6,155 nt of DNA from IMG/VR virus record IMGVR_UViG_2531839098_000015; one strand, given 5' to 3'. The position numbers are program-made. Of the stretch, positions 3,001 to 6,000 are shown one piece after another. Numbering within the stretch: the first letter of the stretch is position 1; each line of letters starts with the position of its first letter. This DNA comes from a virus (Duplodnaviria > Heunggongvirae > Uroviricota > Caudoviricetes).

Positions 3001-6000
3001 CGCAGATTTGAAGATCGCGGGGCAATGGAGCGAGCCAACAAAGCACGCAGAAGATGCGGCGAGGTTTTCCGTTACGCTATTGTCACCGGAAGGGCTAAAT
3101 ATAACCCGGCACCTGACCTTGCTGAAGCCATGAAGGGATACCGCAAGAAGAACTTCCCGTTTTTACCTGCCGACCAGATCCCGGCATTCAACAAAGCACT
3201 TGCAACATTTTCAGGAAGTATCGTATCTCTCATTGCGACCAAAGTTTTACGCTACACAGCACTAAGAACGAAAGAGCTTCGTTCCATGCAATGGAAGAAC
3301 GTCGATTTTGAAAACAGGATTATCACCATCGAGGCCAGTGTGATGAAGGGACGCAAGATTCATGTGGTTCCGATGTCGGACCAGGTTGTTGAACTTCTCA
3401 CTACGCTAAGCTCCATCACTAAACCAGTATCAGAGTTTGTTTTTGCCGGGCGCAACGATAAGAAGAAGTCAATCTGTGAGAACGCTGTACTGCTTGTGAT
3501 CAAACAAATCGGCTATGAAGGTCTGGAAAGCGGTCACGGATTCAGGCATGAATTCAGCACGATTATGAACGAGCACGAATGGCCTGCTGACGCTATTGAA
3601 GTGCAACTAGCACATGCCAACGGCGGATCTGTGCGTGGGATTTACAACCATGCTCAGTATCTCGATAAGCGCAGAGAAATGATGCAGTGGTGGGCGGACT
3701 GGCTTGATGGGAAGGTGGAGTAGTTATTACAACGATTCTTATAAAAAAGAAAAGCCTTGCACATATAGCAAAGCTTTTCACTTCTCAGGATTTCTTACAC
3801 CAAGAAACCATCAACAATAACAAAATGCAATTATTATATGTTAACTACATATGCATTTCATTAAAACCAATCATAAATGCTTATCATACTTTAATTGCTA
3901 TAATTGATTGCCTTCTATTTTTTCAACTCGAGTGGTTGAAACATCATTCTTAAATCCACTCCACCATTTTCTTAGCTTATTGTTTATTGGCTTTTCAAAA
4001 AACAAATACATCATTATTGATATAAATAATGAAGCAAACAGAGCCATTACTATAAATTTAATTACACTTATAGCACCAAGACCAGAAACATTAAAGAACT
4101 TGCTCAATGTACTGATTACTATAGTATGGACCAAGTAAAATGAAAAAGAAGCATCACCTAAAAGTATCATAACTTTATTTGATATTATTTTTGAAATAAT
4201 ACCACCATTAAACGAAAACACTAATATTGAAAAGGCCATTGATGGTATAAAAAGCGCATCATACTGTAATCCATTGCTATTTTGACTTTTTGCCACCATA
4301 TAGACAGACATTAGGATAAAGACTACAGATGATATTTCAGCAAATGATAGAACTAAATATGACGGCTTTGACTTAAACTCAAAATCTCCGGCCTGATTGC
4401 TGCGGATTGTCTCTGCCAGCCTGCCTCGGTCAATCTCACGACCAGCCATCTTGTCCTGAACATTGAAGTAGTCAATCGGACCGAGAGCAGCCATCCCAAG
4501 GTGATAAACAAACTCACCAAACCCTGAAGGATTCTGCTGATACATCTGAGCAACGTTGTTAGGGTCAACACCGACGCGCGCCAGTTCCTTGGCGTTGTTT
4601 TGCAGCCATGATTGCATTGCTTCTGGAGACGAGGCCGCAAGGCGTGCGCCAGCCGCTAAGGTGCCGATAGAATTGCGCTGGTCTTCGTCTGCCCACTTCA
4701 TACCAGACTGAATCTTCTCTAATTGACCAGGATATTTGGTCATCAGATCTCGAACCTGCTGTCGATCGCCGGACTGGATGGCTGCCGCATATTCTTTTTG
4801 GAATGCAGCATCCGCTTCCTGTTGCTTTGCGGCTTGAGATGTTTGAGCGACACTACCAAGTCCCTGCAACGCCTGAAGGCCGATGTTATTGCGACCTGAA
4901 CGCTCCATTTCGTTGTTCTGGCGAATATAGGCCAACGCCTCACTTACATCACTTGCCTTTGGCGCATTTGAGTTTTGCCCACCGATACCAGCAAGAAAAC
5001 CGCCTGAGTTGATTCCTTGTTGCCAAGTAGCCATATTCCCACCTTAAAACAATGATCCAAGACCACCGATAACACCGCCAGCAAGAGCACCAATACCAGT
5101 CCCAATAACAGGAACTGCACTACCAATCATTGCACCTGATGCGGCCCCACCAATGGCACCTGTAGCAAAACTCTGTAGGCCTGAAGGCTTATTCGCATTT
5201 GCTGCCGATGCTGCCGCCTGCTGTTGATACAATTGGCTGACATTGTTAGCGTAGTTCTGTCCGGCGTTTGCCTGACCTGTAAGAGCACCAAGGCCGATAT
5301 TTGCCAGATTGTTGTAGTTGTTCATCTGACCTGACAGCCAGTTTTGACCGAGTGTAGGTGCGATTGCTGCTAACTGGTTTCCTGTTGCTGTAGAGCCTAA
5401 TCCACCCGTTGCCTCTGCTGCTGCCAGACTCTGATAGCGCGCCTGCCCTGCAAGGTCTTTATACTGCTGAGAGTTGTAATACTGGTTAAGCGCCTGACCT
5501 TGCCCCTGAAGAGAGGAAAGATTCTGCAACTGTGATACGTACTGCTGAGCGAGTGGCGTGAACGGTGCAAGGTTTTGCATGTTCGTCTGCCACATTTCAC
5601 GCTGCAGTTCGATGCCCTTTTCAGTTGCGCGTGCCTGGGCTTTAGATCCGGAGTCGCTGCCGCCTTTCATATACCCATTCATGGGAAGCAATTTATTCTT
5701 GAAGCTTTCGCTAAGTACTAACATTTAATAGCTCCTCATATTTCGAACGAGGTAATTGATAGAGGGTGATTCCTACCGGTTTTCCGTTACTCATGTACGC
5801 ATCATCAAGGTGACCAACACGGGTAGCGCCAAGCAAACGGATAATTGCCCGTCCGTATTTGGTGGTGTCAGGAACCATGGTGATGCTGTTAAGGAATGGT
5901 GAGTTTTCGAGAAGCCATTTGCAGAATAATCGATGCCCTTGTAGTGCATATTCGCCACGGAATCCGGGGTCATACACCGCATGGCATTCAACAACGCTAT

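Follow-up and report, generated by a model that had tools for sequence, protein, structure and literature searches.

Why should a prophage remnant that can no longer make a particle still carry an intact gene for a protein made largely of glutamine, asparagine, alanine and glycine? The question arises in IMG/VR virus record IMGVR_UViG_2531839098_000015, in the 6,155-nt stretch analysed here (the window, to which all nucleotide positions refer). An initial annotation had proposed that the 226-aa product encoded at 5044-5724 might be a virion ejection protein of the kind represented by P22 gp7 and Sf6 gp11, had noted a likeness to aggregation-prone sequences, and had suggested that the gene might be retained for a different function. 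Our answer, to which we give a probability of roughly 0.9, is that the gene encodes an intact P22-type ejection protein with a P22-like mechanism, now carried as neutral cargo of the cryptic prophage Sp16.

Chromosomes of E. coli O157:H7 match the window at 100% identity, and its locus is Sp16, an 8.5-kb cryptic prophage remnant at the argW tRNA-Arg site. In E. coli O157:H7 Sakai, Sp16 has been described as an 8,551-bp, highly disrupted element at argW (PMC7430833; PMC2669165; PMC5359411), with no excision or packaging detected (PMC7430833; PMC2669165). The features found in the window are as follows, with the source of each in parentheses.

2330..2404, plus strand: tRNA-Arg(CCU) gene argW, the prophage attachment site (ARAGORN)
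2566..3723, plus strand: prophage integrase gene intS, from its annotated start (PF00589, PF22022, PF13356, RefSeq)
3898..5034, minus strand: residues 1-216 of the ejection protein gp20, fused in frame to the C-terminal part of an O-antigen acetyltransferase, oac' (Pfam, PHROG, comparison with phage 720R6)
5044..5724, minus strand: gp7-type DNA ejection ('DNA transfer') protein, complete CDS, 226 aa (ORF list, Pfam, PHROG, RefSeq)
5711..6154, minus strand: gene 14 homologue (DUF2824, head morphogenesis / virion stabilisation) with IS629/IS1203 sequence in place of its 5' end (PF11039)
5732..5737, minus strand: Shine-Dalgarno sequence GAGGAG, 7 nt 5' of the gp7 ATG, within the 3' end of gene 14 (sequence)
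6096..6155, no strand given: end of an IS629/IS1203 (IS3-family) copy inserted in gene 14 (strains lacking the IS match the window to 6095 only)

Along Sp16 come intS, the gp20(1-216)::oac' deletion fusion, gp7, gp14 (cut short by IS629) and a piece of gp26. Capsid, portal and tail genes are missing: the remnant has no portal, coat, hub, gp16 or tailspike. The longest ORF for intS begins upstream of the annotated start, at GTG 2530. The junction of the fusion lies at about 4385, where phage DNA homology begins, and GC content drops to 0.28-0.35 over 3751-4500. In the fused product, PF16928 covers residues 12-217 (E 7.6e-65) and PF01757 gives a sub-threshold match over 230-343; the PHROG matches are phrog_917, phrog_2534 and phrog_3333. 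The gp20 part is identical to gp20 of phage vB_EcoP-720R6 (Lederbergvirus, ON470605; hereafter 720R6) at 211 of 217 residues, and this identity is lost beyond it. The gene 14 product matches PF11039 over residues 18-144 (profile positions 24-150 of 151), its residues 1-21 match only IS-associated PHROGs, and an IS3-like transposase is annotated directly past the window end. The locus is the same as Sakai Sp16; the IS629 copy found here in gene 14 is missing from some O157 strains, and strains without it have an intact, 155-aa gene 14.

The ORF at 5044..5724 is complete, encoding 226 aa plus a stop, and its coordinates in the initial annotation were exact; it lies on the minus strand, which had gone unstated, with its ATG at 5724-5722 and its stop at 5046-5044. 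Genes 14 and 7 overlap by 14 nt, and the same overlap is annotated in 720R6. RefSeq names the product 'DNA transfer protein' (WP_000960724.1). The dominance of four residues that had been noted holds: A (15.5%), G (14.2%), Q (11.5%) and N (8.8%) make up 50% of the protein, and the two peptides quoted as examples are present at residues 61-94 and 135-161. Q+N amounts to 20% of the whole protein and 30% of residues 46-185, and only 17 residues in the entire protein are charged. Measured against approximate background frequencies for E. coli, the binomial P values are 1.2e-8 for the Q+N excess, 3e-8 for the paucity of charge and 5e-6 for the 13 glycines among the 41 residues of the tail.

Describing this composition as repeats was less apt. 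Tandem Repeats Finder detected no DNA-level tandem repeats in the gene, and the Shannon entropy of 30-residue segments is 2.7-3.6 bits. The low complexity comes from a biased composition in which individual positions are conserved, not from arrayed repeats. Modest signs of helical periodicity, with p values uncorrected for multiple tests, occur for Q/N at 98 degrees over residues 112-176 (p about 0.03) and at 94 degrees over residues 152-176 (p about 0.009), and for the hydrophobic residues of the tail at about 92-94 degrees (p about 0.03); they are suggestive, not decisive.

P22-like podophages (genus Lederbergvirus) have three internal 'ejection proteins', packaged in the virion and ejected on infection; gp7, which is essential for infectivity, is one of them, and profile searches place the window protein in its family, as the initial annotation had supposed. 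The match to Pfam PF25688 (P22_gp7) reaches 301.6 bits, where the cut-off is 28 (E 5.7e-90), and runs nearly end to end, from residues 11-226 of the protein to positions 16-230 of the 230 in the profile. PHROG 598 'DNA ejection' matches with E 8.6e-88. There are 1133 homologues with the same Pfam domain, and tblastn matched 166 phage records, mostly P22-like. The gene order is also that of P22, Sf6 and 720R6: gp14, gp7 and gp20 lie on one strand, with DUF2824 upstream and PF16928 downstream. The ORF is thus an intact, full-length orthologue of P22 gene 7 / Sf6 gene 11. No unrelated well-characterised family matched it, and a model for the protein was not found in NCBIfam. DUF4298 and tape-measure or endolysin PHROGs also turned up and were set aside as compositional, the matches being sub-threshold or confined to the tail.

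The unusual composition belongs to the family as well. Both the Q/N-rich body (median 19.7%) and the small-residue tail recur family-wide, in 72 full-length representatives whose identity goes as low as about 27%, and in distant relatives Q/N positions are conserved at 38%, versus 13% for other positions. A Gln/Asn-rich protein with a glycine zipper is the normal signature of P22 gp7 proteins. The copy was already annotated and the locus already catalogued, so what can be added lies mainly in explaining why the protein looks as it does.

For that explanation, structures are needed. Use of a solved structure directly was ruled out because PDB searches gave no gp7 relative: in the PDB copy searched, phmmer returned 0 hits at E<=1, and a profile search returned only chance coiled-coil matches (E about 1.3). 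We therefore worked from an AlphaFold2 model and from P22 gp7*, which a 2026 preprint reports as solved in situ by cryo-EM, as a dodecameric helical-hairpin channel (10.64898/2026.09.03.749273). The model, built from 65 sequences down to 25% identity, is confident in its core only; a run on only 32 sequences (>=74% identical) reached a mean pLDDT of 39 and was discarded. With the P22 alignment, the protein can be divided into the following parts.

5668..5724, minus strand: N-terminal leader, variable, presumed propeptide, residues 1-19 (corresponds to P22 gp7 1-20)
5170..5667, minus strand: Gln/Asn/Ala-rich helical body, putative hairpin arms, residues 20-185 (predicted helices, alignment to P22)
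5359..5469, minus strand: putative 'fingertip' at the helical hairpin turn, residues 86-122, equivalent to P22 gp7* 90-126 (alignment, conservation, AlphaFold2)
5047..5169, minus strand: uncharged Gly/Ala-rich GxxxG 'glycine zipper' tail, residues 186-226 (composition, hydropathy, P22 alignment)

AlphaFold2 predicts helices at residues 25-50, 56-106, 112-149 and 158-177. The mean pLDDT is 61.5, and the hairpin, with its turn at 107-111, reaches >=90 over about residues 71-140. The leader and tail are unmodelled, which is to be expected because the protein folds only in a 12-mer with gp20; they are also the least conserved regions in the family. A Foldseek search of the PDB with the model gave nothing significant (best E 2.7, Vipp1), and one of BFVD gave only weak matches, to other phage proteins that are uncharacterised or annotated 'DNA transfer'. 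On these searches there is no hidden relationship.

In P22 gp7*, residues 90-126 form a fingertip that docks into the gp10 tail hub through R100, Y101 and E108, and Gln/Asn hydrogen-bond networks join the subunits (10.64898/2026.09.03.749273). The corresponding fingertip in the window protein is the conservation maximum of the family (2.45 bits per column, with a peak at residues 101-125), and the hub-interface residues are conserved as R96, Y97 and E104. Its motif, ...AEATGGLGSTATGNQLAAIAP..., reaches P123, one residue past the segment 86-122, which is given as AEATGGLGS.... To extend the comparison, 27 distinct P22 residue positions were taken from the figure legends of the preprint, and 17 of them are identical in the window protein. 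Of the 15 gp7-gp7 hydrogen-bond residues, 11 are kept (Q41, Q75, Y88, R96, Q98, W129, Q151, Q156, Y158, N160 and N161), as are 3 of the 5 gp20-contact residues (N142, N161 and Q164). The Gln/Asn hydrogen-bond network thus appears largely conserved at the level of its residues, and residues 20-185 probably correspond to the two hairpin arms that each of 12 subunits would contribute to a 24-helix extracellular channel. This mapping is drawn from the text of the preprint and an alignment.

The same results bear on the likeness to aggregation-prone sequences, which proves superficial. The Q/N-rich part is predicted to be helical (pLDDT >=90 over about 71-140) and is conserved position by position, and in P22 these residues form specific inter-subunit hydrogen bonds (10.64898/2026.09.03.749273).

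The tail is where the initial annotation was right in kind and slightly short in extent: the GxxxG-rich, small-residue character stands, and the length, put at about 38 residues, measures 41. Residues 186-226 are 32% G and 20% A, with zero charged residues, a maximum 19-residue Kyte-Doolittle hydropathy of 1.69, and 7 GxxxG motifs starting at 189, 193, 197, 208, 212, 216 and 217. In P22 gp7*, a V-shaped C-terminal helix pair sits with gp20 in the outer membrane, the membrane residues being I191-F229 (10.64898/2026.09.03.749273). These align to 186-226, which would accordingly be read by alignment as the equivalent helix pair. Of the eight named P22 membrane residues, three are identical in the window protein and three more are conservative hydrophobic swaps; two of the five that differ have become small residues (A, G). 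The proposal of envelope insertion agrees, by analogy, with the P22 tail having been seen embedded in the outer membrane.

For the leader, P22 again provides the precedent, since residues 1-20 of its gp7 are removed before assembly (10.64898/2026.09.03.749273). An annotation note for P22 ascribes the cleavage to OpdA (OpdA-dependent in Salmonella). The leader of the Sp16 protein may be cleaved in the same way.

In a functional phage, the parts would work together as follows. The N-terminal propeptide of about 20 residues would be taken off, and the mature protein would be packaged in disordered form within the lumen of portal and tail. On infection, about 12 copies would be ejected and would refold as a dodecamer of helical hairpins, with the conserved hairpin turn (residues 86-122) inserted as a wedge between gp10 subunits in the tail hub. 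Side-chain hydrogen bonds among the Gln/Asn-rich helices would zip these into an extracellular tube of 24 helices, and the tube would also hold the gp20 N-terminus. The Gly/Ala-rich tail would form two short helices per subunit with glycine-zipper packing and, with one gp20 helix per subunit, these would make an outer-membrane pore of 36 helices for the passage of DNA. This mechanism has been demonstrated for P22; its extension to the window protein follows from 64-72% identity and from conserved key residues. In Sp16 itself, the gene is cargo in a remnant that does not excise, with no virion to serve. The composition of its product reflects neither decay nor prion-like behaviour nor a new toxin, and is the conserved functional signature of unfolded passage through the tail and refolding as a polar-zippered helical tube with a membrane-embedded tip.

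How, then, has the gene remained intact? The deletion junction and the >=99% identical gp7 allele are each present in 309 of 5,426 genomes, and all carriers share the locus at about 100% identity; the remnant goes back to a single clonal event. Relative to the live-phage allele, dN/dS is 0.136 overall and 0.039 for residues 1-185, values that record the history of the gene in phages and not in the remnant, and the differences from live-phage alleles are mainly synonymous. A promoter/terminator scan found 7 promoter-like sites in the remnant, versus 6.9 expected from shuffles, i.e. the chance rate. Most likely, the gene is a neutral leftover still awaiting decay, by an argument from absence in a lineage too clonal for selection to be measured.

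An explanation compatible with the neutral leftover, though unlikely as the account of the gene, is that the gp7/gp14 segment serves as a reservoir, donated by homologous recombination to incoming P22-like phages, with no cellular role. P22-like ejection genes are highly mosaic (PMC10461980), defective O157 prophages recombine with other prophages (PMC2669165), and gp7-like DNA occurs in 1,164 of the 5,426 E. coli genomes. The gene itself also carries a probable trace of such exchange. It matches 720R6 gp7 at 184 of 185 residues over 1-185, and 13 of the 14 amino-acid differences fall within 186-226, where dS is 0.72, compared with 0.23 in 1-185; this clustering with high dS points to mosaic exchange of the membrane tail relative to 720R6. 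Donation of this kind would, however, be a by-product and not a selected function.

Retention for a new function is very unlikely. On this account, the bacterium would express gp7, with or without the gp20(1-216)::oac' product, as an outer-membrane pore, as a toxin, or as a poison for the ejection channels of superinfecting P22-like phages (superinfection exclusion). In its favour are the intact reading frame, a strong Shine-Dalgarno sequence and the co-orientation of the gene with the IS629 transposase gene upstream, which makes read-through transcription conceivable. By analogy with P22, gp7 and gp20(1-216)::oac' would supply the extracellular and outer-membrane sections of the channel; that their expression (e.g. 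by IS629 read-through) yields an envelope pore or poisoned P22-like channels is a still more remote prospect, and channel poisoning, if true, would give a decayed prophage a new way of excluding superinfecting phages. However, intactness needs no selection in one clonal event carrying a near-unchanged live-phage allele, and promoter-like sites are no more frequent than chance predicts. PADLOC gave, for anti-phage defence, only an 18.7-bit compositional match to LeoB, over residues 190-225 of the Gly-rich tail. In P22, gp7* without gp20 makes no ordered membrane pore; only residues 35-181 are resolved, and they end in a cone (10.64898/2026.09.03.749273). In one transcriptome study, only 1 of 9 Sp16 genes changed expression (PMC5931665), and no evidence was found for a role of gp7 in known P22 exclusion (PMC10461980). 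We see no support for a new function of the gene in the remnant.

A prion-like or aggregation-prone Q/N protein, or a generic YMGG-like glycine-zipper membrane peptide unrelated to phage, would fit the Q+N content of residues 46-185, the few charges and a weak match to PF13441 (Gly-zipper_YMGG; E 0.02), but that match scores 15.1 bits, below the 28.9 cut-off, and covers the tail only, the Q/N region is confidently helical, free of repeats and conserved by position, and full-length gp7 homology explains the whole protein, so that the idea is effectively refuted.

The intact P22-type ejection protein, carried as neutral cargo, remains the preferred reading. The finding has little import beyond correct annotation; in practice, small Q/N-rich, GxxxG-tailed ORFs beside DUF2824 and Inj_translocase genes can be filed as gp7-type.

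Among known systems, the most distant comparison is with T7 gp14 (internal virion protein B), an outer-membrane component of the T7 ejectosome of about 200 aa that is ejected at infection; T7 gp14, P22 gp7 and Sf6 gp11 have been listed together as outer-membrane 'gp14-like' elements (PMC8954989). Homology to T7 gp14 was considered and rejected (hhalign probability 0.75% over 10 aligned columns), and BFVD fold matches to T7-like or phiKMV-like internal virion proteins were not significant (E about 0.9-1.7). T7 gp14 is a functional analogue and not a member of the same family. The closest phage allele is that of 720R6, with 94% amino-acid identity in gp7 and 95% DNA identity across gp14-gp7-gp20N. 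P22 gp7 and Sf6 gp11 belong to the same length class (229 and 230 aa, versus 226), with global identities of 64% and 68%, respectively, rising to 72% over residues 20-184; Sf6 gp7 functionally replaces P22 gp7 (PMC10461980). Unlike them, the window gene sits in a dead remnant without virion genes, its leader differs in sequence and falls 8-9 residues short of theirs when aligned, and its tail has more Gly/Ala and lacks the 'STPWGA' motif. Common to all three are the gene neighbourhood, the putative hub-docking fingertip, most of the Q/N hydrogen-bond residues, and an uncharged GxxxG tail with the terminal ...GSLF.

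The window matches E. coli O157:H7 chromosomes at 100% identity and carries, from left to right, mlaA, yfdC, tRNA-Arg(CCU), intS, the gp20'::oac' fusion, gp7 and a gene 14 homologue.

Phage-related and flanking features of the window
2330-2404: tRNA-Arg(CCU)
Right of tRNA-Arg(CCU): intS integrase
3898-5034, minus strand: gp20'::oac' fusion, a 378-aa ORF with its junction at about 4385
5044-5724, minus strand: gp7 ORF, 226 aa, ATG at 5724 and stop at 5046-5044
5711-6154, minus strand: gene 14 (DUF2824) homologue, 5' end replaced by IS629/IS1203

Judged by its sequence, the 226-aa product belongs, over its full length, to the P22 gp7 / Sf6 gp11 family. 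It matches Pfam PF25688 at 301.6 bits (cut-off 28 bits, E 5.7e-90), pairing residues 11-226 with positions 16-230 of the 230-position profile, and it matches PHROG 598, ‘DNA ejection’, at E 8.6e-88. Global identity is 94% with the gp7 of the Lederbergvirus Escherichia phage vB_EcoP-720R6 (hereafter 720R6), 68% with Sf6 gp11 and 64% with P22 gp7, rising to 72% with P22 over residues 20-184. Every feature of the family that can be checked in sequence is present; propeptide cleavage and ejection are predicted features. The initial annotation, which had placed this ORF exactly and read it as a virion ejection protein to be searched against the P22 gp7 family, was thus correct in its primary interpretation, and its observation is confirmed. 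The gene, family, locus and (since 2026) mechanism have all been described previously: the exact sequence is labeled ‘DNA transfer protein’ in public sources, occurs on at least 1000 contigs and has the RefSeq entry WP_000960724.1. The family is small, with 257 representative clusters (E<=1e-3) among 1.84 billion representatives.

The composition is strongly biased. Ala (15.5%), Gly (14.2%), Gln (11.5%) and Asn (8.8%) together make up 50% of the product, Gln and Asn reach 30% across residues 46-185, and only 17 residues in the entire protein are charged. The small-residue GxxxG tail that had been described at the C-terminus is indeed there: Gly accounts for 32% and Ala for 20% of the final 41 residues (186-226), which carry no charge, contain seven GxxxG motifs and peak at a 19-residue Kyte-Doolittle hydropathy of 1.69. 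Relative to approximate background frequencies for E. coli, binomial P is 1e-8 for Gln plus Asn, 3e-8 for the paucity of charge and 5e-6 for tail Gly. Both peptides cited earlier are found in the product, and the Gln/Asn/Ala/Gly enrichment stands, but the ‘repeats’ do not; because TRF finds no true repeats in the gene and 30-residue entropy is 2.7-3.6 bits, the sequence is a compositional bias rather than a repeat array.

By analogy, the known structure of P22 gp7 accounts for this odd composition, and the channel mechanism shown for P22 gp7 would apply to the window protein as well. According to an in situ cryo-EM preprint (10.64898/2026.09.03.749273), P22 gp7 loses residues 1-20 before assembly, and the mature gp7* lies disordered within the portal and tail lumen of the virion until it is ejected at infection. 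It then forms a dodecamer in which each subunit is a fold-back two-helix hairpin, whose ‘fingertip’ (P22 residues 90-126) is wedged in between the gp10 subunits of the tail hub. Side chains, mainly those of Gln, Asn and Tyr, build an extensive network of hydrogen bonds that joins neighboring gp7* subunits and keeps the first 47 residues of gp20 within the lumen. The C-terminus is V-shaped, with two helices per subunit (24 in total), and the outer-membrane pore has 36 helices, 24 from gp7* and 12 from gp20 (same preprint).

Residues that the figure legends of the preprint single out were transferred to the window protein through the alignment. Those kept include R96, Q98, Y88, Q75, W129, Q151, Q41, Q156, N160, N161 and Y158 at the subunit interface, R96, Y97 and E104 at the hub interface, and N142, N161 and Q164 at the gp20 interface. 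Among the eight membrane residues given there, three are unchanged, another three differ by a conservative hydrophobic substitution, and the last two give way to small residues (Ala215 for P22 I218, Gly221 for P22 L224). The legends of Figures 2-3 give N45, W101 and Q161 where the P22 sequence has Q45, Y101 and T161; these labels are probably typos that leave the mapping unaffected.

Three independent sequence-based checks (predicted model, conservation and composition) agree with the P22 picture. The AlphaFold2 model, computed from a 65-sequence alignment with identities down to 25%, has pLDDT of at least 90 over about residues 71-140 and places helices at 72-106 and 112-149; the turn between them, GGLGS (107-111), is the mapped position of the P22 fingertip. 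Across the family, conservation is highest at residues 101-125 and reaches its minimum in the leader and tail. The peak fits docking onto gp10, which is unusually conserved; the docking argument is likewise made in PMC10461980. Among 72 full-length representatives, median Gln plus Asn in the body is 19.7% and median Gly plus Ala plus Ser in the last 40 residues is 45%. Positions that are Gln or Asn in the window protein are Gln or Asn in 38% of distant members, versus 13% at other positions; the composition is a family trait. Helical periodicity of the Gln/Asn residues and the tail hydrophobics is only weakly significant.

The prophage is defective, as had been supposed: no portal, coat, hub, gp16 or tailspike gene remains. 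The remnant is the Sp16 element of Sakai, 8,551 bp and ‘highly disrupted’, for which neither excision nor packaging has been detected (PMC7430833; PMC2669165; PMC5359411). The 378-aa ORF joins parts of two genes in frame across a deletion. Residues 1-216 come from the N-terminal end of the gp20 ejection protein (PF16928; 211 of 217 positions shared with 720R6 gp20), and the rest (about 160 residues, GC falling to 0.28-0.35) is the C-terminal part of an O-antigen acetyltransferase, oac; the remaining gp20, gp16 and everything up to oac have been lost. The whole fusion is covered by phrog_28221 (378/378), and RefSeq names it plainly ‘phage DNA ejection protein’. On the other side, the IS629/IS1203 insertion (IS end 6096-6155) cost the gene 14 homologue about 23 N-terminal codons, and its open frame runs about 20 codons into the IS end, giving a chimeric start. 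[quoted passage not shown] Upstream of gene 14, only the 3' part of the needle gene remains (the gp26 ‘knob’; 18178-18714 and 16491-17027 in L003 and L001, two further sequences carrying the locus), and two deletions therefore delimit the remnant, the first inside gp26 and the second at the gp20-oac join.

A strong terminator-like hairpin (about 3749-3779; L003 15749-15779, minus strand) separates the 3' ends of intS and of the fusion; it has a 12-bp stem followed by a T-run and is probably the original oac terminator or a convergent one. In a phage collection, 218 records match window 3700-6155, of which 93 are Stx2a-converting phages by name; 154 records match part of it at >=99% identity. 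The shared segment is probably the IS629 end or sequence next to argW, not the ejection genes.

It had also been proposed that gp7 is retained for a different function, an idea for which the analysis yielded no support and which we consider very improbable. The gene has a good ribosome-binding site (Shine-Dalgarno GAGGAG, 7 nt upstream of the ATG), an IS629 transposase gene lies upstream in the same orientation, and the gp20 fragment left in the remnant spans the parts that partner gp7. However, the deletion junction is present in 309 of 5,426 complete E. coli genomes, and the gp7 allele (>=99% identity) likewise in 309. The remnant is a single recent clonal event; the intact 681-bp gene thus requires no selective explanation, and with diversity absent, selection on it is not measurable. 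Promoter-like sites number 7 where 6.9 are expected by chance, and the only match among defense-system models is compositional, at 18.7 bits and to the tail only. In P22, gp7* without gp20 builds just part of the extracellular tube, which ends in a cone and leaves the protein's tail unresolved (10.64898/2026.09.03.749273), so a stand-alone gp7 pore is not expected.

Differences from the live-phage 720R6 allele (about 41 synonymous and 21 nonsynonymous changes, dN/dS 0.136) also argue against a new function. Residues 1-185 are 99.5% identical, with one amino-acid change, dN/dS 0.039 and dS 0.23, whereas 13 of the 14 amino-acid differences fall in the glycine-zipper tail (186-226; window 5047-5169), where dS is 0.72. 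The boundary is sharp, and the tail divergence is of the kind produced by mosaic exchange among phages, rather than by drift after decay or by neofunctionalization. This suggests that the membrane tail is swapped as a unit that may co-vary with the N-terminus of gp20.

No solved structure resembles gp7 by sequence or fold, and BFVD matches to its model are weak and to other phage ‘DNA transfer’ proteins. A YMGG-type glycine-zipper identity was rejected (15.1 bits against a 28.9-bit cut-off). The ejection protein does have a counterpart in T7 gp14, the T7 ejectosome's outer-membrane component (reviewed in PMC8954989): there is no detectable homology (hhalign probability 0.75%), but the two would work alike.
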